Shown here piece by piece: positions 1,346-45,195 of a DNA stretch of 46,563 nt (position 1 is the stretch's first letter; each line of letters opens with the position of its first letter). The stretch covers positions 1-46,563 of the IMG/VR virus record IMGVR_UViG_2721755658_000005; one strand, 5' to 3'. A program made the translations under genes and the position numbers. Origin of the DNA: a virus (taxonomy: Duplodnaviria; Heunggongvirae; Uroviricota; Caudoviricetes). Below the pieces are notes generated by a model, which made no database searches, was not told the origin of the DNA, and was given only the letters and a program-made list of their open reading frames with translations.

Positions 1346-1810
1346 ATGCCCATGACAACACAGACGCAGTACGGCCTCGCACCCGCTAACCAATCAGAAT
1401 TTGAACTGACCGTCACGCAGGTACCCGACGAACAGCGTATCGATTTCTGGCCGCAACACTTTGGCACTATCCCGCAGTGGACAACCCTGGAACCGCGTAT
1501 TTTTGCCTGGATGGACCGCTTCTGTTCGACCTACAGCGGTGGTATCTGGTCCTTTTACACCCTCAGCAATGGCGGGGCGTTTATGGCTCCCGAGTCTGAC
1601 AATGATGAGACATGGCGTCTGTTTAATTGCCTGAACGGCAACGATGCCCAAATGAGTGCAGAAGCCGCAGGTATTGCTGTCTGCCTGATTGCGTACAGCC
1701 ATCACGCCTGTCGCACCCAATGCGATGCCATGACTGAACACTATTACCGCCTGCGGGACTACGCCCTGCAGCATCCAGAGGCCCACGCCATTCTGCGTAT
1801 TATCGACTGA
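1346..1810 (+). CDS. yafX: antirestriction protein, ArdB/KlcA-like (YafX-like)
   Basis: 154 aa. Its position and sequence match the YafX/YfjX/YeeS-neighbour family of CP4 islands. Confidence 0.7.
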   Translation: MPMTTQTQYGLAPANQSEFELTVTQVPDEQRIDFWPQHFGTIPQWTTLEPRIFAWMDRFCSTYSGGIWSFYTLSNGGAFMAPESDNDETWRLFNCLNGNDAQMSAEAAGIAVCLIAYSHHACRTQCDAMTEHYYRLRDYALQHPEAHAILRIID

Positions 1811-1825
1811 CCGAAGGAGCAACAG

Positions 1826-2302
1826 ATGAAACAGCTTTCCTTTTTACCCGGCGAGATGACGCCACAGGACCGGTGTCTCATTCAGCGGGCGCTCAGGGCT
1901 CTGGACCGCCACCTGCATGAGCCCGGCGTAGCCTTCACCTCTACCCACGCCGTACGTGAATGGCTGCGACTGCATATGGCCGCGCTTGAGCGGGAAGAGT
2001 TCCGGGTGTTGTATCTGGACAACCAGAATCAGTTGATTGCCCATGAAACGCTCTTCATCGGCACGATTAACCGCACCGAGGTGCATCCCCGGGAGGTGGT
2101 CAAACGTGCTCTGCACTTCAACGCGGCGGCGGTGATACTCGCGTACAACCATCCTTCTGGCGAGACAACACCCAGCCAGGCAGACAAAGCCCTCACGCAG
2201 CGACTGGTACAGGTGCTTCAGTTGGTGGATATCCGCGTCCCTGACCATCTGATTGTCGGCGGCAGGCAAATCTATTCGTTCGCAGAACACGGTTTGCTGT
2301 GA
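1826..2302 (+). CDS. ykfG: RadC-like JAB-domain protein (YkfG-like)
   Basis: 158 aa. The motif HNHPSGETTPSQADKALTQRL is the RadC/JAMM signature. Confidence 0.8.
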   Translation: MKQLSFLPGEMTPQDRCLIQRALRALDRHLHEPGVAFTSTHAVREWLRLHMAALEREEFRVLYLDNQNQLIAHETLFIGTINRTEVHPREVVKRALHFNAAAVILAYNHPSGETTPSQADKALTQRLVQVLQLVDIRVPDHLIVGGRQIYSFAEHGLL

Positions 2303-2310
2303 GGTATGAT

Positions 2311-2532
2311 ATGAAAATTATCAGTAAACGCCGGGCAATGACGATATACCGCCAGCATCCTGAGTCCCGAATCTTTCGCTACTGCAGTGGAAAATATCAG
2401 TGGCACGGTAGCATCTGCCATTACACCGGCAGGGACGTTCCGGATATCGCAGGTGTCCTCGCGGTATACGCCGAACGCCGCCAGGACCGCAACGGGCCTT
2501 ATGCCTGCCTGATGAGCATCACTCTGAACTGA
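2311..2532 (+). CDS. ykfH: DUF987 protein (YkfH-like)
   Basis: The ATG at 2311 (MKIISKRRAMTIYRQHPE...) gives 73 aa. The track ORF starts 12 nt earlier at an alternative codon. Confidence 0.6.
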   Translation: MKIISKRRAMTIYRQHPESRIFRYCSGKYQWHGSICHYTGRDVPDIAGVLAVYAERRQDRNGPYACLMSITLN

Positions 2533-2552
2533 CAATACAAAGGAGAGTCGTT

Positions 2553-2870
2553 ATGACTCACATCACATGGGGCCTGCAGCGGAATATCACGCCGCGCCTG
2601 GGAGCCCGTCTGGTGCAGGAGGGGAACCGGTTGCATTATCTGGCTGACCGGGCCAGCATCACCGGCAAGTTCAGTGACACCGAATGCCGGAAGCTGGATG
2701 AAACATTCCCGCACTTTATCCGCCAGATGGAATCGATGCTGACCACCGGTGAAGTCAGCCCCCAACATGCCCACTGCGTCATCATGTACCACAACGGTTT
2801 CACCTGTGAAGCCGACACCCTTGGCAGTTGCGGTTACGTGTACATCGCCATTTATCCCACCCAGCGCTAA
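2553..2870 (+). CDS. yafW: CbeA-family type IV antitoxin (YafW-like)
   Basis: 105 aa, immediately upstream of the CbtA-family toxin. Typical YafW/YeeU/YfjZ sequence. Confidence 0.75.
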
Positions 2871-2890
2871 TAACTTTCACGAGAGCAAAC

Positions 2891-3232
2891 ATGAAAACTT
2901 TGCCTGCAACAACTCAGCGGGCGGTGAAGCCCTGCCTGTCACCCGTGGCTGTCTGGCAAATGCTACTGACACGCCTGCTGGAACAGCACTATGGTCTCAC
3001 CCTCAACGACACACCGTTCAGTGAGGAACGTGTTATACAGGAACATATCGATGCCGGGATCTCGCTGGCTGATGCCGTGAATTTTCTGGTGGAAAAATAC
3101 GAACTGGTGCGTATCGACAGGAAGGGATTTAACTGGCAGGAACAATCGCCTTATCTTCAGGCTGTCGATATTCTGCGAGCGCGGCAGGCAACTGGCTTGT
3201 TGCAGCAAAGCCGTAGCAACGTAGTACGATGA
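2891..3232 (+). CDS. ykfI: CbtA-family toxin (YkfI-like)
   Basis: The ATG at 2891 ([43 protein letters not shown]...) gives 113 aa. Confidence 0.75.
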
Positions 3233-3619
3233 ACATTGCGTACAACCTTCCCGATTTACATTTCTGAACTTCCTCCCTTGTTTACCTATTGCGTAATGCG
3301 CCTGCTGCTACCCGGCTGGCGCGTTATCTTTTTACGGACAAACCATCATGCAACCAGAAGGTGAAGTATTAACCGATCATAATGAGCTAATTTGTTCAAG
3401 CTTTATTGAACACATTGCCAACACATTGAATTTAGGAGTGGTGTAGACATGGACAACTAAACCTGCAGCCACGGAGGTATAGCGAGTGAAGCCCTATCCG
3501 ACCTTTTTGGTCAGTAGATAAGATTGATCTTCGTTGATAGAATTTACTTACATCAGCAGTTACATGAAAATAATTTTTGGTGGGAAAAAGATAAGACACT
3601 ACGTAACTATTTGATTTCT

Positions 3620-3665
3620 TGGTGCCGATAATAGGAGTCGAACCTACGACCTTCGCATTACGAAT
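3620..3665 (-). repeat. displaced 3' 46 nt of tRNA-Thr thrW = int-distal att junction of the prophage
   Basis: TGGTGCCGATAATAGGAGTCGAACCTACGACCTTCGCATTACGAAT is identical to 45120-45165. Identity ends at 3666 and 45166. Confidence 0.9.
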
Positions 3666-4080
3666 TATAAGAATCCGCTTCTAATTCAAAGCATTACCCC
3701 ATCAACACTGCGCTCACACGTCCCACCACATCAAAACATGTAAAGCCTTGCAAGTCATTGCGAGGCCTTATGTGTCTCAGTTTTGTCCCACCTTGTATTA
3801 CGACTTGCATAGCCAATGAAGATAAATGTGACGACAAACGGCGCAGCAGTCTTCTTTTCCTTCATACTTTCCCCACCCAGCATGCATACCTTCTACCATA
3901 ACTGTAGTTAATGTCTGTTATGAGCGAAAAGCGGTCCTTAAATACAATTTTCATTGATAACGCCGTCTTGTTGCTATTGAAGACATTATCAACATCATTG
4001 TGTTTTTACTTATATTTGAAGGAGGGCTATTCAAGGGATTGCCCCCTTTTAACAAAAATTCCACCAGAACAGTAGGTCTG

Positions 4081-5775
4081 CTAATTGGTCTCTATAATTG
4101 AGCTTAATTCGTTAATGAGCAGGTGAGGGCTCATTTGAGTTAAGTCATACTGCCGCCCCAATTTCTCTTGCATTCCTCCTCGTATTTTCTTTAATAAATA
4201 TTTGCCTTTAATGTTATTAACTGATGTCGGAACTTGGTTTCCAAATAATGTTAGGTGTCGAGGGCATGCTTCCAGTCTCCCCTTATATAAATTATATTTA
4301 ATCACCTCTCTTTTGGATTGAAAATCAGACTGGATGACAACATGATTTTGTGCGGCTATATCAGTAATCCATGTTTGTATATCTTGCACAGAAGAGCCTG
4401 TAACATGAGATAAATGCTCTATTCTGGTAAAATAACTCTCAATATCACTACCTTCAGTAATGAATGGAATGGCGCCACCTCTTTGAATTTCTGCTTTTAC
4501 TATATCTACTTCTTCATCAGTCATAAAATCGCGGTCACGATGAATTATAACCTTGCAATTAGGGGACATTTCCTTAAGAAGGTCAGCAGATACAATTGCT
4601 CCTTGCACATTTGTGCATGTTTTGTAGCTATAGACTGCAGTTCTCTCCATATCAAAACCATTATATTGTAAAAGGGCCTTGAAATATTTTTTATCTCTAT
4701 CTTCAGTGAGAAATATATTCTCCACAACTCCTTCAGTTACTCTATCCAAGTCATTTAAAGCTCCTAAATCTAAGAACATTGATATTTTGTCCAAATCCAT
4801 GCCTTGATTCTGAACATTACCATCTTTCATCCAAATAAAATTTGCCTCTCCATACAATGAATCAATTATATGTTTGCTATGAGTGGAAAGTATAACTTGA
4901 GTTTCTGATTTGTTATTTTCTGATATTAAACTCAATGAGTCAGTGAGAATATATTGATTATCAGGGTGAAGATGAGAATCCGGTTCATCTAAGAGTAATA
5001 ATTTAGGTTTGAAATATACTATATATGCAAATATCTGTAATGTTTGAAGTAATCCAGTTCCCGCCAACTCGATAGGGTAATTTTTCCCACTTGCATTTTC
5101 TTTAAAATTAACGGTTAGATAAGTATCTTTATCCTCTTTGAAATCCACTTCGATTTCTATATCTGGAAATACAACTTGCAGCATGCTATTGAGATTTACC
5201 AAGTGGTTATCTTTGTTCAGATAGTATATGACATTCCTTAAGTATAAATTTGCATCACCACTTGCCACTCCTCTTCTAACTATTGCTGGCGATTTTAATT
5301 CTTCCTTCTGTGAGATACCAGCCAGACCAGGGACATATATACTAAAGAGATTTTTTTCATCGGTGATTACTGAACCGAAGCCGGTATAATCACCGGTTCT
5401 TTCACATGACATATTTCCATGATTTCGTCCCTTAGATATAATTATATTGTATTCTAATTGTCGACCAGCAAGATCATCATATCCAAAAAGACTCAACACA
5501 CTTTGATTGCCAGGCGACCTCGAATTCTTATAAGGTTCGCCGTTCTTTAAAACAGTGAAGTCTGGGGTGATATTATACATTAAAAGTTCAGTAGAGAATG
5601 TTTGTTGACTTTGTTGCCGAGCGGCAATAGCTGCGCATACTGAAAAATGTATAGCTTGCAGAATACTGCTCTTACCTGAACTATTTGCCCCTACTAATAC
5701 ATTTATATCACTAAGGGTGATTTCTGCTGTGTCAATTTTTTTGAATTTACTAACAGACAAAGACTTAATGAACAT
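4081..5775 (-). CDS. ABC/AAA15-type ATPase fused to a Toprim/DUF4435-like C-terminal domain (OLD-family or fused PARIS AriA-AriB-like defence nuclease)
   Basis: ATPase motifs are present: Walker A GANSSGKSS, signature-like LAGTGLLQTL, Walker B LLLLDEPDSHLHP, and H-loop ILSTHS. The C-terminal part carries IFLTEDRDKKYF, IIHRDRDF and SDIESYF, which resemble the acidic Toprim/DUF4435 motifs. The ATG at 5775 has an AAGGA Shine-Dalgarno. The track start at 5793 is a TTG. Confidence 0.6.
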   Translation of the reverse strand: MFIKSLSVSKFKKIDTAEITLSDINVLVGANSSGKSSILQAIHFSVCAAIAARQQSQQTFSTELLMYNITPDFTVLKNGEPYKNSRSPGNQSVLSLFGYDDLAGRQLEYNIIISKGRNHGNMSCERTGDYTGFGSVITDEKNLFSIYVPGLAGISQKEELKSPAIVRRGVASGDANLYLRNVIYYLNKDNHLVNLNSMLQVVFPDIEIEVDFKEDKDTYLTVNFKENASGKNYPIELAGTGLLQTLQIFAYIVYFKPKLLLLDEPDSHLHPDNQYILTDSLSLISENNKSETQVILSTHSKHIIDSLYGEANFIWMKDGNVQNQGMDLDKISMFLDLGALNDLDRVTEGVVENIFLTEDRDKKYFKALLQYNGFDMERTAVYSYKTCTNVQGAIVSADLLKEMSPNCKVIIHRDRDFMTDEEVDIVKAEIQRGGAIPFITEGSDIESYFTRIEHLSHVTGSSVQDIQTWITDIAAQNHVVIQSDFQSKREVIKYNLYKGRLEACPRHLTLFGNQVPTSVNNIKGKYLLKKIRGGMQEKLGRQYDLTQMSPHLLINELSSIIETN

Positions 5776-5822
5776 TTTCTTTTCCTTTTTCAATGAAAGG
5801 TGTAAAACTTTAACTCATCATT

Positions 5823-6107
5823 TTAGTTGTTAACATTCAAAATCATAAACTGATTCTCTATTTTACCAATGAATAGCAGTCCTATCAGAGTAAAAATAGT
5901 GTTAGATATTTTTCTTACATCTGAATCTGAGAAATATTCGGATTCTTTATAGCAATTATTCCATATGTCGAGTTCTCTAAAATCATAAGCTAAATGAGCA
6001 ATTTTTCCCCAATCTTCATTTACTATATGTTCAGCCATTGTAAAAAAATCACTCTTAGTCGGAATGTCTATTCTCATTGTTACTTGGCCTATTTTTTCAT
6101 TGCTCAC
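5823..6107 (-). CDS. hypothetical 94-aa protein with C-terminal hydrophobic segment, probably co-transcribed with the ATPase
   Basis: The gap to the ATPase gene is small (29 nt to its TTG start at 5793, 47 nt to the preferred ATG at 5775). The strand and AT-rich composition are the same. The hydrophobic stretch is ISNTIFTLIGLLFIG. Confidence 0.45.
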   Translation of the reverse strand: MSNEKIGQVTMRIDIPTKSDFFTMAEHIVNEDWGKIAHLAYDFRELDIWNNCYKESEYFSDSDVRKISNTIFTLIGLLFIGKIENQFMILNVNN

Positions 6108-6296
6108 ATATATAACTATATGATATTTATATTAAAACTCCAACATTAAGTTTCGGCTTTCTTCAAGTAAACTACATAGCACGATGTAAGCAACTTCCGC
6201 TTTTGGCACATAGCAGTCCTAGAGATACTGGCGTAAAGCCATGGAGGATCGGTGGGAGGAGGTAAAAATCCTCTCATGCAAAAAATACGCAAAATC

Positions 6297-6386
6297 GATA
6301 ACAGTTGGAAATCATTCAATACTCGCACTATCGGAAGTTCACCAGCCAACCGCAGCACGTTCTTGCATACGACATGCCTGCGGTTT
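6297..6386 (+). repeat. copy A of a ~90-nt structured repeat (ends in hairpin CCGCAGCACG...CATGCCTGCGG + TTT)
   Basis: It aligns without gaps to 8972-9061 with about ten mismatches by eye. One mismatch pair is compensatory: GTTGG/CCAAC in copy A versus GCTGG/CCAGC in copy B. Confidence 0.8.
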
Positions 6387-6407
6387 CAACTCCCGCCAGC
6401 TCCACCA
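6380..6407 (+). other. look-alike of the 3' terminus of tmRNA (ssrA): GCGGTTTCAACTCCCGCCAGCTCCACCA
   Basis: It differs at one position from the E. coli ssrA 3' end as I recall it (GCGGGTTCAACTCCCGCCAGCTCCACCA). This is probably an att-site relic of an ssrA-targeting element. Confidence 0.55.
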
Positions 6408-6531
6408 ATCATGATTGGACGGTTAAGGACAACACCAATAAAAACAGGAAGTTAGCAGTCTCAGCAGGACACCGACCAGACGGTGAGGAGACAAAAAAGG
6501 ATACGCAAAGGAGCCGCGGCTCCCGAGTGAC

Positions 6532-6567
6532 AAAAAAGCCCGCTTATGCGGGCTTTTTTGTTTTTTT
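6532..6567. terminator. bidirectional intrinsic terminator
   Basis: AAAAAA-GCCCGC-TTAT-GCGGGC-TTTTTTGTTTTTTT. It lies 10 nt downstream of the Bro-N gene stop on the minus strand. Confidence 0.75.
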
Positions 6568-6576
6568 CCCTCAAGC

Positions 6577-7338
6577 TCACTGACGTGTTCTTGCCTCAAC
6601 TACTTTCTGGTATATAGCGATAGCTTCATCAACCAAAGCTAATGGATAGCAAGAATTTATATTCAATCCGGAGGGGCACTTAATTCTTTCTGCTCCACGT
6701 TCACTACGCAATTTTTCACACCATTGCCAAAGTTCCTCAACTGAATAGGTATCCAAACCTAACTCCATCAATCGTTGAGGAACACTTCTGAACTGAGACA
6801 AATCTCTTAAACTTTCTAACGAGTTAACTTTTAGTTCAACTTGGTTTACTCTACTTTCTAACTCTTCACGTTTTTCTATTTCCATTACCAATGCTTGAAC
6901 CGTCTGCTGCAGACTGTTAGCAAAAGCACTCAGTTCTGAACGTTCTTGTTTAGGTGGCGGAGGATATACACCAAATTCACGAATAGACGGAAGGACCTGA
7001 TGAAAAAGCCAGCGTTGGAATTTTTTCCCCGCAGCAGTAGTATCCTGAGCAAGTACTCTATATAGACCTGGTTCAGTAAGAAATACCTCAGAGATAGTTT
7101 CACCATCCACGACAAGAGAAACATTCCTAAACTCATCTGGATCTAAAGTTTTTATTACCGCTTTTATTACAGTGAGCAAGCTTTGAGAAGTCTTTCCATC
7201 CAGTTTTCTGTTCTCAGCAGAAAGCGTTCTTAGCACATCTGAAAGTGAAACAAAAATCTGCCCTTTTTCATTCATGCTACGGATATAATTTTCTCCACAC
7301 TCTCCTTCGTAGCATAATTGTAACAAATTCTTTTGCAC
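6577..7338 (-). CDS. Bro-N domain protein (antirepressor-like) with coiled-coil C-terminal half
   Basis: EVFLTEPGLYRVLAQDTTAAGKKFQRWLFHQVLPSIREFG is the Bro-N signature. The start is a GTG preceded by AGGAGG. Confidence 0.75.
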   Translation of the reverse strand: MQKNLLQLCYEGECGENYIRSMNEKGQIFVSLSDVLRTLSAENRKLDGKTSQSLLTVIKAVIKTLDPDEFRNVSLVVDGETISEVFLTEPGLYRVLAQDTTAAGKKFQRWLFHQVLPSIREFGVYPPPPKQERSELSAFANSLQQTVQALVMEIEKREELESRVNQVELKVNSLESLRDLSQFRSVPQRLMELGLDTYSVEELWQWCEKLRSERGAERIKCPSGLNINSCYPLALVDEAIAIYQKVVEARTRQ

Positions 7339-7616: not shown

Positions 7617-7645
7617 TTGATCTTGAGTTTGGTTTTTAGTATAAG
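7617..7645 (+). promoter_or_regulatory. candidate sigma70 promoter for the XRE-ImmA operon
   Basis: TTGATC, 17 nt, TATAAG. A GGAGG Shine-Dalgarno and the ATG at 7672 follow. Confidence 0.5.
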
Positions 7646-7671
7646 TGAGCATGGATTGTAGGAGGCGCAAC

Positions 7672-8022
7672 ATGGTAACTAGCTTTGGTAAGACTCTCAG
7701 AAAAATGAGAATAGACCGGGGTATGGTGCTCAAAAATATGGCTGATCTGTTAGGCGTTAGTTCGGCTTACTTATCCGCCATTGAATTAGGCAAAAGAGCT
7801 ATACCGGACTCATTAGTAAATACGATTGCAACAACTTTTGAGCTTAGCGGACAAGACATCATCAATCTCAAGAAACAGGCAGAGATTTCTCAACCGTCCA
7901 TTAAGGTTGATATGTCGGATGCAAATGAGCAGAACAAAGAACTAATGCTTGTTTTTGCTCGTAAATTTAAGGACCTGAGTCCAGAGCAACTCGATAAGCT
8001 TAATAAAATGTTAAAGGACTGA
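7672..8022 (+). CDS. XRE-family helix-turn-helix regulator
   Basis: FGKTLRKMRIDRGMVLKNMADLLGVSSAYLSAIELGKRAIP is a canonical HTH_3 sequence. The ATG at 7672 has a GGAGG Shine-Dalgarno. The track start at 7645 lies inside the -10 element. Confidence 0.8.
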   Translation: MVTSFGKTLRKMRIDRGMVLKNMADLLGVSSAYLSAIELGKRAIPDSLVNTIATTFELSGQDIINLKKQAEISQPSIKVDMSDANEQNKELMLVFARKFKDLSPEQLDKLNKMLKD

Positions 8023-8025
8023 ATA

Positions 8026-8559
8026 ATGATTGCGAAACGAGAACTTGGCCATCGCGTTTCACCTCTCAGCACCAGCATGATTAAATCATACGCTCATCGT
8101 CTGAGAGACGTTCTTCAGATATCAAATCACACATATCTGAGACTGGATGTATTACTAGAAGGTCTTATGGCCTCAGAAAGCATTGAGCTAGAAATTGTTG
8201 AAGATCATGAACTGCCCAAACGCTATGCAGTGACTTATCCAGATAAGAACAAAATTGTTTTACAGCGATCTGTTTACGATGCAGTGTGCAATGGTGAGAA
8301 CCATGCGAGATTCACTGTTGCGCATGAACTTGGTCATTTAGTCATGCATCGCAATCAAAGTATCTATGCACGTAATAAGACTAGTGGAGGGCATAAAATC
8401 TATGAAGACAGCGAATGGCAAGCAGATGTTTTTGCAAGCCACTTCTTAATTGACTCAAGACTAGTTTTGCCCACAATGACTGTTGAAGATATAAGCAAAA
8501 CATTTGGTGTCAGTCAACAAGCGGCTGAAACCTGGATGAGAAAAAATGCAAAAAGATAA
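8026..8559 (+). CDS. ImmA/IrrE-family (COG2856) zinc metallopeptidase
   Basis: The HEXXH motif is in FTVAHELGHLVMH. The gene starts 3 nt after the XRE gene stop. Confidence 0.85.
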   Translation: MIAKRELGHRVSPLSTSMIKSYAHRLRDVLQISNHTYLRLDVLLEGLMASESIELEIVEDHELPKRYAVTYPDKNKIVLQRSVYDAVCNGENHARFTVAHELGHLVMHRNQSIYARNKTSGGHKIYEDSEWQADVFASHFLIDSRLVLPTMTVEDISKTFGVSQQAAETWMRKNAKR

Positions 8560-8868: not shown

Positions 8869-8971
8869 CACTTCTGTTACGCGCACCACAGATAGAGTTT
8901 CAGCTAAAACTTTTGTTCATACCTAGGAGTCTGCTGACGAGTGGTTTGTTCACTAATAAACACGTAAAAAC

Positions 8972-9061
8972 GGTAACGGCTGGACATCATTCAATATTCG
9001 CACTATTGGAAGTTCACCAGCCAGCCACAGCACGTTCTTGCATACAACGTGCCTGCGGTTT
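8972..9061 (+). repeat. copy B of the ~90-nt structured repeat (hairpin followed by TTTTT)
   Basis: See copy A. This copy ends CCTGCGGTTTTT. Confidence 0.8.
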
Positions 9062-9153: not shown

Positions 9154-10023
<870 letters not shown>

Positions 10024-10083: not shown

Positions 10084-10638
10084 TCATTTATCTCCGACCG
10101 GAAACTTCTTATACAGTGTCGATATACCAACATCATAGATGATCGCCACCTTCTGGCGAGGGACGCCTGATGCAATTAATCGCCCGGCCTGCGCCCATTG
10201 TTCTGGTGTAAGTTTGGGACGACGTCCACCAATTCGTCCCTGTGCGCGAGCAGCGTCCAGTCCAGCTTTTGTTCGTTCAACAATCAGTTCTCGTTCCATT
10301 TCAGCCAGGGCACCCATCATATGAAAGAAAAAACGCCCCATCGGTGTGCTGGTATCAATAGCATCCGTCAGGCTGCGAAAATTAACGCCACGTTCGCGCA
10401 ACTCCTCAACCAGAATGACCAGATGCCGCATACTACGCCCCAGCCGATCCAGCTTCCAGACAACCAGAGTGTCACCTGCCGATAATGTCCTGAGCAGTTT
10501 TTTCAGTCCCGGCCTTTCGGACTTTGTACCGCTTATCTTGTCTTCAAAAATCAGCTCGCATCCTGCACAGTTCAGCGCATTACGTTGTAGATCTGTGTTC
10601 TGGTCATTTGTTGACACACGTACATAGCCAATAAGCAT
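10084..10638 (-). CDS. serine DNA invertase, Pin/Gin/Cin/Hin family
   Basis: The sequence runs MLIGYVRVSTNDQNTDLQRNAL...VVWKLDRLGRSMRHL...GRIGGRRPKL with a C-terminal HTH. The ATG at 10638 has a GGGAGA Shine-Dalgarno. Confidence 0.9.
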   Translation of the reverse strand: MLIGYVRVSTNDQNTDLQRNALNCAGCELIFEDKISGTKSERPGLKKLLRTLSAGDTLVVWKLDRLGRSMRHLVILVEELRERGVNFRSLTDAIDTSTPMGRFFFHMMGALAEMERELIVERTKAGLDAARAQGRIGGRRPKLTPEQWAQAGRLIASGVPRQKVAIIYDVGISTLYKKFPVGDK

Positions 10639-10664
10639 GGTAGATCTCCCTGACAAAAGCAGGA

Positions 10665-11159
10665 ATGATGCCATTTGCTCGTTATTTCTGCATTTTCATA
10701 AACGTTGGTTTGGGAGAATCGGCAAAACGGAATGTGGGCAACGGGGAAAACCAAATCCCTGATATGTCTTTCTGGACGGTTACTGGTGGCAATGGAAATT
10801 TTGTGATTCGTCAACCTGACGGGCTAATCATTCAGATGGTTACTGTAAGTATAAGCGGCCCGGTGGCGATGAATGGAATGACTGATAATGCTTATGCCAT
10901 TACAGGTTCTAATAAGTCTTATATTGCCACAGCCACATTGCCCTTTGTATTTCCTAATAAGGTGCTGGGCGTTATCCCTCTGGTATCAACAACAGCTTAT
11001 GGTGGTGTATCCAGTAATATTACAGGTTCATACGCGACTGCGGTTTGTTCTTTTGCCGCTGTCAGGGGGAATAATACGATTGTGTTCAAAGTCGACAAAC
11101 CACTGAATGCAGCCTTTCCTTCAGATACCAGCGTCTCAGCGTTAATCATTGGACGGTAA
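10665..11159 (+). CDS. alternative (currently unexpressed) tail-fibre C-terminal segment
   Basis: It shares ..N(V/L)GLGE.. in frame at the crossover site with the active fibre gene, so inversion would fuse it to the constant N-terminal part. No independent start is expected. Confidence 0.65.
   Translation: MMPFARYFCIFINVGLGESAKRNVGNGENQIPDMSFWTVTGGNGNFVIRQPDGLIIQMVTVSISGPVAMNGMTDNAYAITGSNKSYIATATLPFVFPNKVLGVIPLVSTTAYGGVSSNITGSYATAVCSFAAVRGNNTIVFKVDKPLNAAFPSDTSVSALIIGR
10693..10718. other. invertase crossover site (gix/hix-like), left
   Basis: TTTTCATAAACGTTGGTTTGGGAGAA. The 16-nt core TTGGTTTGGGAGAA plus AAAC is shared with the reverse complement of 12677-12702. Confidence 0.7.
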
Positions 11160-43715: not shown

Positions 43716-44065
43716 TGGAGCCATACAGCCTCACACTCGATGAGGCCTGTCATTTTCTCAAGATATCCAGACCGACTGCCATTAACTGGATACGCACAGG
43801 GCGTCTTCAGGCAACACGCAAAGATCCCACTAAGAATAAATCTCCTTACCTCACAACACGACAAGCCTGCATTGCGGCTCTTCAGTCTCCGCTGCATACT
43901 GTCCAGGTGAGCGCGGGTGATGGCATAACAGAGGAAAGAAAATGTCACTCTTCCGCAGAGGTGAAATATGGTACGCCAGTTTCACATTGCCGAACGGTAA
44001 AAGATTTAAACAGTCTCTTGGAACAAAGGACAAAAGGCAGGCGACAGAACTCCATGACAAGCTAA
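43715..44065 (+). CDS. xis: excisionase (MerR-type HTH_17)
   Basis: From the ATG at 43715: [33 protein letters not shown]. The 3' end overlaps int. Confidence 0.65.
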
Positions 44066-45105
44066 AGGCTGAAGCATGGCGGGTCAGCAAACTTGGTGAA
44101 ATACCTGATATAACGTTCGAGGAAGCGTGTGTCAGGTGGCTTGAAGAGAAAGCACATAAAAAATCACTGGACGATGACAAAAGCCGGATCGGATTCTGGC
44201 TTCAACATTTCGCAGGAATGCAACTAAGAGACATTACTGAATCAAAAATTTATTCAGCAATGCAGAAAATGACGAACCGGCGTCATGAGGAAAACTGGAA
44301 ACTCAGGGCAGAAGCATGCAGAAAAAAAGGGAAACCTGTTCCAGAATACACGCCAAAACCAGCGTCCGTTGCAACGAAGGCTACGCATCTTTCATTTATA
44401 AAGGCCCTACTAAGAGCCGCAGAGCGTGAATGGAAAATGCTGGATAAGGCACCAATTATTAAAGTGCCTCAACCAAAGAATAAACGGATCCGCTGGCTGG
44501 AGCCCCATGAAGCACAAAGGCTGATTGATGAATGTCCGGAGCCATTAAAGTCTGTTGTTGAATTTGCACTGGCAACAGGCTTAAGACGCTCGAACATCAT
44601 CAACCTTGAATGGCAACAAATAGATATGCAGCGCCGGGTGGCATGGATAAACCCGGAAGAGAGTAAATCAAACCGCGCAATTGGCGTTGCGCTGAATGAT
44701 ACTGCATGTCGCGTATTGAAAAAACAAATCGGGAATCATCACCGTTGGGTATTTGTGTACAAGGAAAGCTGTACCAAACCAGACGGAACGAAAGCGCCAA
44801 CAGTAAGGAAGATGCGGTATGACGCAAACACAGCCTGGAAAGCGGCGCTGAGACGGGCTGGTATTGATGATTTCAGATTTCACGACTTGAGACACACCTG
44901 GGCAAGTTGGCTGGTTCAAGCCGGAGTCCCGTTGTCAGTGTTACAGGAAATGGGAGGCTGGGAGTCTATCGAAATGGTTCGTCGATATGCTCACCTTGCA
45001 CCTAATCACCTTACCGAACACGCACGGCAAATAGACTCGATCCTGAACCCATCGGTCCCAAATTTGTCCCAGTCAAAAAATAAGGAAGGTACTAATGATG
45101 TGTAA
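43942..45105 (+). CDS. int: tyrosine integrase, P22/SfV type (thrW-specific)
   Basis: [34 protein letters not shown] opens the protein. The catalytic region follows: ...LRRSNI...[38 protein letters not shown]. The gene lies adjacent to the tRNA 3' end. Confidence 0.9.
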
Positions 45106-45119
45106 CTTATTGATTTACA

Positions 45120-45165
45120 TGGTGCCGATAATAGGAGTCGAACCTACGACCTTCGCATTACGAAT
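45120..45165 (-). repeat. int-proximal att junction (phage-supplied 3' 46 nt of thrW)
   Basis: Identical to 3620-3665. Confidence 0.9.
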
Positions 45166-45195
45166 GCGCTGCTCTACCAACTGAGCTATATCGGC
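45120..45195 (-). tRNA. thrW: tRNA-Thr (anticodon CGU)
   Basis: The reverse complement reads GCCGATATAGCTCAGTTGGTAGAGCAGCGCATTCGTAATGCGAAGGTCGTAGGTTCGACTCCTATTATCGGCACCA. It is 76 nt and cloverleaf-compatible, with anticodon loop TTCGTAA. Confidence 0.95.

Follow-up and report, generated by a model that had tools for sequence, protein, structure and literature searches.

The gene at 4081..5775 on the minus strand of the IMG/VR virus record IMGVR_UViG_2721755658_000005 (46,563 nucleotides, analyzed at full length and referred to here as the window) encodes a protein of 564 amino acids (aa) that, by analogy with characterized systems, is most likely an anti-phage protein carried by a prophage, known in kind but belonging to an unnamed family. 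It would be a stand-alone fusion of an ATP-binding cassette (ABC) ATPase with a Toprim nuclease, carried as prophage cargo and serving in defense, and a 94-aa open reading frame (ORF) just upstream would be the stump of another gene and lie outside the machine; a probability of roughly 0.6 is given to this reading as a whole. The architecture is that of P2 Old, the fused form of PARIS (AriAB), and HEC-04/IbfA, yet the protein fails the sequence-based membership of each. It is placed as a new member of the known class, and not of any named family, because it has no DUF4435 match, no OLD-type Toprim homology, and similarity to HEC-04 in the ATPase motifs only.

An earlier reading of the window from its letters alone (the sequence-only reading) had placed the two ORFs at 4081-5793 and 5823-6107, both on the minus strand, with gaps of 29 nucleotides (nt) to a TTG start and 47 nt to an ATG start of the larger one, and these positions and distances stand. 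Use of the TTG at 5793 would add six residues (4081-5793, minus strand, 570 aa). The ATG at 5775 is likely the start of the 564-aa protein since a Shine-Dalgarno-like AAGGA, read from the sequence, lies 7 nt before it (5783..5787, minus strand), RefSeq annotates a 564-aa product, and the homologues start there. The RefSeq name of the product is “AAA family ATPase.” All of the motifs quoted in that reading were found in the protein (GANSSGKSS, LAGTGLLQTL, LLLLDEPDSHLHP, ILSTHS, LTEDRDKKYF, IIHRDRDF, and SDIESYF), and their key residues are invariant amongst 48 homologues with 43-95% identity. The full-length AlphaFold2 model has a predicted local distance difference test score (pLDDT) of 87 and contains no long coiled-coil inserts. 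The G+C content of the region is 34-35%, compared to ~50-57% across most of the window.

The ATPase head (residues 1 to ~330; 4786..5775, minus strand) has the full set of ABC ATPase features, including Walker A (K35), the Q-loop, the signature (LAGTG), Walker B with the catalytic glutamate (D263-E264), the H-loop (H299), and the ABC fold. K35, the Q-loop region, LxGTG, D263-E264, and H299 are nearly or fully invariant in the alignment of the 48 homologues, and with Pfam matches to AAA_15 (2.2e-28) and AAA_21 (1.2e-23) they bear out the earlier description of a complete ABC/AAA15 ATPase. Two inserts in the head, GRNHGN and ASGDANLYLRN, are specific to the family. The closest structural matches are an SMC head (20.0) and the retron-associated and Septu PtuA proteins (18.8-19.7), followed by AriA (16.2), GajA (15.7), and the OLD protein of Retron-Eco8 (15.0), with AriA having the highest sequence identity of these (21%). 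Based on this ranking, the head is a generic SMC-type ABC module with short family-specific inserts and without a long coiled coil. By profile, the sole OLD-type Pfam match of the whole protein is a weak N-terminal DUF2813 stretch. The top NCBIfam match of the ATPase, MAD3, is far under its cut-off, and the PADLOC profiles for AbiLi and HEC-01A match with scores far below the family thresholds.

A Foldseek search of the full-length model against the PDB was swamped by ABC heads and was uninformative for the nuclease domain, and the C-terminal domain (residues 328-564; 4084..4794, minus strand) was therefore modeled on its own. The separate model (pLDDT 93, predicted template modeling score 0.89) has a β-α-β-α-β-α-β core followed by a helical bundle, and this predicted fold shows the hallmarks of Toprim, namely a four-stranded parallel core with a glutamate after β1 and a DxD motif after β3. 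The acidic residues E358/D359 (directly after β1), D414xD416 (directly after β3), and D444xE446 (after β4) are invariant in the family, and thus the acidic motifs picked out in the sequence-only reading lie at the ends of β1, β3, and β4 as in Toprim. The basic residues K488, R489, and K525 are also conserved. The best structural matches are AriB of PARIS (8.3 over 181 residues), the class 1 OLD of Thermus scotoductus (7.9 over 127 residues), the C-terminal region of the class 2 OLD of Burkholderia pseudomallei (7.8 over 143 residues), and PH0156 (7.6 over 148 residues), beneath which generic Rossmann-like folds are mixed in with GajA (6.4 over 142 residues). AriB, GajA, and class 1 OLD, with which a comparison of models had been proposed, are all amongst the best matches of the C-terminal domain.

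At the sequence level, residues 328-564 have no match in Pfam, NCBIfam, or the PDB, either as a single query or as a 21-member profile, and weak NYN/PIN_10 matches (E ≥ 0.03) were treated as noise. The DUF4435 family (PF14491) was matched neither by the window domain at E ≤ 10 nor by any of the 21 family members at E ≤ 1. The PADLOC AriB profile gives a weak match over the Toprim core (E 0.0056), and the PADLOC mad4 profile matches four of the 21 C-terminal domains, down to 6e-5. The earlier proposal of a Toprim/DUF4435-like C-terminus of the OLD/PARIS kind was right in fold and active site, with AriB, OLD, and GajA as the best structural matches, whereas the sequence falls outside the DUF4435 and OLD-type Toprim models.

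PARIS is defined by AAA_15 (≥32 bits) or AAA_21 (≥27 bits) together with DUF4435 (PF14491, ≥27 bits), encoded either separately or as a fusion (Rousset et al., 2022; PMC9122126). The 564-aa protein agrees with the ATPase half of this definition and departs from it in the other, as it has no PF14491 match and only the marginal AriB hit above. It resembles PARIS in combining an ABC ATPase (AAA_15/AAA_21) with a Toprim nuclease and in being carried by prophages or satellites in cargo hotspots. The active site of AriB consists of E26, D30, D88, E90, and E122, and the acidic layout of the 564-aa protein parallels E26/D88/E90/E122 (PMC11464382). On the other hand, the 694-position AriAB model of PADLOC matches ATPase stretches only, the protein is ~130 aa shorter, and its model lacks the long coiled-coil inserts. 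In PARIS, Ocr is sensed by AriA and the Toprim tRNase AriB is then released (PMC11464382); a single chain cannot follow the described release of AriB from the AriA hexamer. Triggering by anti-restriction proteins such as Ocr and cleavage of tRNA-Lys are further traits of PARIS. Candidates from P4-satellite hotspots that were examined for an AriB sequence proved to be one ORC/Cdc6-like ATPase and one ATPase disrupted by an insertion sequence, and were not AriB. A 565-aa ORC/Cdc6-like ATPase forms the sole psu-int cargo of a P4-like satellite in E. coli EC16 (L108 7786-9483) and is unrelated.

The class 1 OLD proteins (P2 Old and those of T. scotoductus and Vibrio cholerae) share with the 564-aa protein an organization of one gene for ~520-590 aa that joins an ABC ATPase to a C-terminal Toprim domain, with no associated helicase or retron. 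P2 Old is also prophage-borne, and consists of an ABC sensor and a Toprim effector that cleaves tRNA once activated (PMC12445682; bioRxiv 10.64898/2026.07.10.737580). With P2 Old as the one OLD sequence in the comparison, hhalign aligned the ATPase part at 96% probability, whereas a profile comparison of the C-terminal domain with the end of P2 Old gave a probability of 0.3%. The PADLOC Old model likewise matches N-terminal ATPase stretches only, and the ATPase head is structurally nearer to SMC and PtuA. HEC-04/IbfA, from E. coli and an IncI1 plasmid, is a direct precedent for a single-chain ABC ATPase-Toprim fusion with experimentally demonstrated defense, and has a metal-binding EDD site (E319, D375, and D377) in which mutations, like those in Walker A, abolish defense (bioRxiv 10.1101/2024.01.29.577857). 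Its spacing of E…DxD is identical to that of the 564-aa protein, at 56/58 residues (E358 to D414/D416). However, HEC-04 is ~490-518 aa long and belongs to a different family; the hhalign alignment to HEC-04 WP_044502283, for which the query was the first 399 aa, covers 91 columns around the signature and Walker B and not the full length, and no HEC-04 model matched the C-terminal domain amongst PADLOC matches at E ≤ 1.

Gabija does not fit either. The observation that no UvrD-like GajB accompanies the gene holds for the ORFs of the window, and no helicase gene adjoins it in the related loci. Compared to GajA (class 2 OLD), the 564-aa protein is also shorter and its nuclease-domain match is weaker. 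Profile matches to MAD3, mad4, AbiLi, and HEC-01A recall the MADS Mad3/Mad4, AbiLi/AbiLii, and HEC-01 (ATPase and DUF4276) systems, but these are two-gene or embedded systems, and no score comes anywhere near its family threshold.

By analogy with PARIS, P2 Old, and HEC-04, a mechanism can be proposed in which the SMC/PtuA/AriA-like head serves as a sensor and keeps the AriB/OLD-like Toprim domain inactive. A phage-derived cue would alter the nucleotide or oligomeric state of the head, upon which a two-metal Toprim site (E358, D414, D416, D444, and E446) would cut nucleic acid, and the resulting halt of translation or replication would abort the infection. The likeliest target would be host tRNA, as for AriB and P2 Old, with DNA as the alternative. 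In this scheme we infer the nuclease activity and its substrate, the autoinhibition, the trigger, the defense phenotype, and the capture of a promoter discussed below. What the analysis itself shows is the domain architecture, the predicted fold, the conserved residues, the breadth of the family, the lack of a conserved partner, the origin of the small ORF as a remnant, and the mobility and hotspot setting.

The choice of substrate defines the strongest competing explanation, a possible though clearly less probable one, in which the same architecture delivers a DNA nickase or exonuclease directed at phage or host DNA, in the manner of GajA and the class 1 OLD of V. cholerae. OLD enzymes cut and nick DNA in vitro (PMC10568477; PMC12392090), and the ATPase head is most like the DNA-binding heads of SMC and Rad50. 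However, AriB aligns over 181 residues including the helical extension, compared to 127-143 residues for OLD, AriB and mad4 are the sole sequence-profile matches, and P2 Old itself is reported to act on tRNA in vivo (PMC12445682; bioRxiv 10.64898/2026.07.10.737580). These points favor a tRNase.

The 94-aa ORF (5823..6107, minus strand; GTG start, or 84 aa from the ATG at 6077) was read earlier as a dedicated partner of the ATPase. It is an open frame, but it is the 5′ stump of a displaced HEPN-like gene of ~317 codons that has been carried along with the ATPase gene, an interpretation based on homology to the first 55 residues of the parent, shared upstream DNA, and the substitution pattern. 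Only five close relatives were found in a search of 5.8 billion clusters, and an exhaustive phmmer search against 1.84 billion representatives returned six matches, mostly fragments of 45-84 aa and one protein of 306 aa (P0127), residues 1-54 of which align to ORF residues 11-64 at 52% identity by BLASTP (E 2e-17). The closest member is a Salmonella protein of 317 aa (P0156), the first 55 residues of which are 80% identical to the translation of window positions 6077-5913 by tblastn, and the remainder of which was not found in the window by the same search. Thus the remnant part of the ORF at 5913..6077 (minus strand) corresponds, by tblastn, BLASTP, and alignment, to codons 1-55 of a ~317-aa HEPN-like/Zn-ribbon family. 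The homology extends upstream, as the Salmonella locus from 148 nt before the P0156 gene through its first 167 nt (L105 4853-5167) matches window positions 6224-5911 at 80% and ends there. The non-coding DNA at 6078..6224 (minus strand) therefore derives from the HEPN-like gene locus and is the probable promoter or leader of the module. In this reading the ATPase gene displaced the HEPN-like gene, and the stump may now just supply upstream transcription signals. Promoter and terminator scans gave counts not above chance. The hydrophobic C-terminal helix of the ORF sits in the ~29 codons beyond the breakpoint. In the MAFFT alignment these codons lie opposite residues ~66-85 of the parent family (KLITAFNLILQSIEF...), a loose and unscored correspondence read from the alignment only, and BLAST and tblastn found no similarity of the stretch to the parent family.

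The alternative is a true two-gene system in which the 84/94-aa product is a partner, such as an antitoxin, gate, or sensor adaptor, and is possibly a domesticated HEPN-like N-terminal domain. The ORF accompanies the ATPase at ≥95% identity in every context seen (E. coli, Klebsiella, and a third enterobacterial context) with a constant spacing of 47 nt, stays open after 6-8% nucleotide divergence, has an in-frame deletion in one variant, and shows a ratio of nonsynonymous to synonymous substitution rates (dN/dS) of ~0.5 and not 1. Yet clear relatives exist for residues 11-65 only, which correspond to residues 1-55 of proteins of ~317 aa. The ORF lacks the HEPN motif and Zn-ribbon of these proteins, and the upstream non-coding DNA was inherited with it from the parent locus. 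The ORF is absent upstream of an 83%-identical homologue, where homology with the window begins 22 nt before the ATG, upstream of a 64%-identical homologue, which has only a divergent gap of 107 nt, and at ~70 distant loci. The substitution pattern points in the same direction. Substitutions at codon positions 1/2/3 number 4/6/5 (L092) and 8/7/5 (L003, Klebsiella) in the small ORF compared to 13/6/43 and 15/12/42 in the ATPase gene, a difference in the third-position share with Fisher p = 0.016 and 0.006, and dN/dS is 0.45 (L092) and 0.51 (L003) in the ORF compared to 0.11 and 0.18 in the ATPase gene. No clear Shine-Dalgarno sequence precedes either start of the ORF (GTG, or ATG at 6077).

Co-conservation of the ORF with the ATPase family, which had been put forward as a check, is thus lacking, and the earlier idea of a new two-gene system gives way to an ORF that occurs only in the closest ATPase clade, evolves under much weaker constraint than the ATPase, and carries the first ~55 codons of a HEPN-like gene. 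A two-gene system is accordingly unlikely, and so is a residual function of the small ORF, which is still conceivable because the substitution numbers are small. Even less probable is a chimeric unit made by cassette recombination, in which the HEPN-type stump would gate the nuclease as an inhibitor or adaptor and the family would be a widespread AriB-like tRNase lineage unseen by defense profiles.

The parent family comprises more than 200 proteins of ~306-320 aa from Acinetobacter, Salmonella, Pectobacterium, Proteus, Vibrio, and other genera. Nine aligned full-length members share an LRN(R/K)FMH motif, which has the HEPN Rx4H pattern, and a C-terminal cysteine-rich ribbon. A Swt1-like HEPN model matches the family weakly (E 0.006), and the family has no Pfam entry. 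Members lie at L105 5001-5954 (Salmonella) and at L101 5001-5921; the gene is beside an EcoRII-type restriction-modification (R-M) system in Salmonella and, elsewhere, in the early region of a lambdoid prophage. This uncharacterized HEPN-like family is a candidate defense gene in its own right. A 321-aa cargo gene of the hotspot described below was considered as a full-length parent of the small ORF and is unrelated.

The remnant and the ATPase-Toprim gene form a 2.3-kb module (3913..6214, minus strand) that recurs by blastn at ~95% nucleotide identity across unrelated chromosomal sites, including nrdG/arsP (L092), yedK/umuDC in Klebsiella (L003/L093), and the prophage end in E. coli (L001/L002). 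Two chromosomal locations besides the prophage end show this identity, one in Klebsiella and one in a different host, and the module thus behaves as mobile defense cargo. Amongst 5426 complete E. coli genomes, only two carry it, both at the end of a prophage, and in one of these two it directly adjoins the anti-phage gene PD-T4-3. The 83%-identical homologue is located at the end of a P2-like prophage, and the 64%-identical homologue is beside conjugative-transfer genes.

In the window, the module occupies the attachment (att)-distal end of a prophage integrated at thrW. A 64-nt repeat is found at 3603-3666 and at 45102-45165 (94% identical), the latter overlapping the thrW tRNA gene, and probably marks the two att ends. 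The only Rfam match in the window is this tRNA-Thr(CGT) (45120-45195, minus strand), adjoined by an integrase gene (43942-45105, plus strand). Because the repeat at the tRNA-Thr/integrase end recurs at 3603-3666, the ~41.5 kb between the two copies looks like one prophage, with tail and baseplate genes, a Pin-type invertase (10084-10674, inside the prophage), and a cargo end. The cargo site is bounded by a left conserved flank (3603..3941, with the att-like repeat in its first 64 nt), found by blastn of L103/L104 against the window, and a right conserved flank (6174..6578). The same flanks in other E. coli strains enclose an unrelated 321-aa protein or almost nothing, with an EcoRII-type R-M system adjoining. 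The 321-aa hypothetical protein (WP_000049501.1; L103 3456-4421 in E. coli USMARC-50748) is unrelated to both genes of the module.

Beyond the closest clade, a word-indexed search recovered at least 1390 proteins at E ≤ 1e-5 amongst the 8000 candidates examined. Of the best 120 of the 1390, nearly all have a length of ~550-585 aa and a coverage of 96-100%, and the named members amongst these 120 are mostly called “AAA family ATPase.” In 185,579 species genomes (one genome per species), at least 177 loci were found, a lower bound set by the search patterns. The hosts include Proteobacteria, Firmicutes, Actinobacteria, Acidobacteria, Planctomycetes, Bacteroidota, Nitrospira, and a Methanothrix. 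Judged by sequence comparison, these proteins form a separate family without a name. When the flanking ORFs of ~80 loci were clustered, no family occurred in more than six loci and none was fixed in position, and phmmer comparison of same-strand upstream ORFs revealed no recurring family; upstream ORFs of ~85 aa at some loci look like translations of non-coding DNA. As no neighboring gene family recurs, the 564-aa protein, like class 1 OLD, is a unit that stands alone. When the 132 nearest neighbors were scanned with Pfam and PADLOC, many proved to be ordinary metabolic and signaling genes, with scattered defense genes including type II and III methyltransferases, restriction enzymes, PbeC, ZorE, ShosA, UzuA, PD-T4-6, and PDC-S14. 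The homologue in Vibrio fluvialis (L008 1-5500) has an upstream same-strand cluster of four genes without a Pfam match (≥408, 581, 720, and 135 aa) and an HNH protein downstream, and this cluster could be another defense cluster.

Several of these results weigh against a stand-alone defense nuclease with an inert stump. Neighbors across phyla are heterogeneous and often housekeeping-like, with defense genes in scattered loci only; a search of 50,697 deposited phage genomes gave no homologue, and family members were found on just 12 of 72,556 plasmids. The hhalign comparison with P2 Old aligns the ATPase alone, and neither the window domain nor the 21 family members match DUF4435 or an OLD-type Toprim domain in Pfam. 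Moreover, the small ORF is still open in E. coli, Klebsiella, and a third host, and its dN/dS of ~0.5 is calculated from 15-20 substitutions only.

Some of the same observations would fit a non-immune chromosomal ATPase-nuclease for DNA repair or maintenance, of the RecF/Rad50 type with a Toprim domain like that of RecR, which resides in the prophage by chance. Most of the ~34 distant loci examined have ordinary metabolic or signaling neighbors, the family is rare in phages and plasmids, and RecF and Rad50 are amongst the ATPase matches. Nevertheless, a housekeeping role of this kind is improbable given the patchy distribution of the family (two of 5426 E. coli genomes, and at least 177 loci in the species genomes), the horizontal movement at 95% identity between genera and sites, the low G+C content, the position in a cargo hotspot beside PD-T4-3 and R-M systems, and the best nuclease-domain matches, all of which are immune effectors. 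A stand-alone ABC-ATPase/Toprim protein with a defense role is the preferred reading.

The cargo end of the prophage contains further elements. PD-T4-3, a LEM-3-like GIY-YIG nuclease, is encoded at 9199-10023 (plus strand; full-length PADLOC match, E 2.7e-140). Upstream of it are a helix-turn-helix (HTH) protein (7645-8022, plus strand; PADLOC capH, 6e-11) and an M78/IrrE-type metallopeptidase (8026-8559, plus strand; PADLOC capP, 5e-15), and this pair could be a CapH/CapP-like damage-responsive regulator of PD-T4-3. Next to the pair, on the opposite strand, is a BRO-N protein (6577-7338, minus strand). A 107-nt direct repeat (6280-6386 and 8955-9061, 87% identical), one copy of which lies in the right hotspot flank, brackets the cassette of BRO-N and the HTH/M78 pair. 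In strain L725, this cassette is missing and the ATPase module is joined directly to PD-T4-3, which suggests that recombination between the repeats adds or removes the cassette. Most E. coli genomes contain copies of the repeat, which are unannotated and sometimes near pinE. The right flank also holds a copy of the ssrA (tmRNA) 3′ end at ~6380-6420 (plus strand; ...GGTTTCAACTCCCGCCAGCTCCACCA), with 97.6% identity over 41 nt to the genuine gene. By its appearance, this is the att remnant, within the prophage cargo region, of an element that integrates at ssrA. Just outside the att repeat (1346-3232, plus strand) is the end of a CP4-type island that encodes an antirestriction protein, a RadC-like JAB protein, DUF987, and the CbeA antitoxin and CbtA toxin.

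The unusual gene pairing in the window is explained by a gene remnant, which serves as a caution that cassette exchange can carry along what is left of a displaced cargo gene, and that this stump may then look like a conserved small ORF beside a defense gene. The displaced ~317-aa family, with its RNRFMH motif, Zn-ribbon, and EcoRII-type R-M neighbor in Salmonella, is in turn an uncharacterized candidate defense gene. The 564-aa protein would add a large, multi-phylum family, annotated at present just as “AAA family ATPase,” to the ABC-ATPase/Toprim immune nucleases represented by OLD, PARIS, Gabija, and HEC-04. Its nuclease domain is missed by the PADLOC profiles and by Pfam DUF4435, and a dedicated profile would improve the annotation of defense genes. 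As a compact single chain of 564 aa, it is a possible model for how an ABC sensor may control a Toprim effector without a partner.

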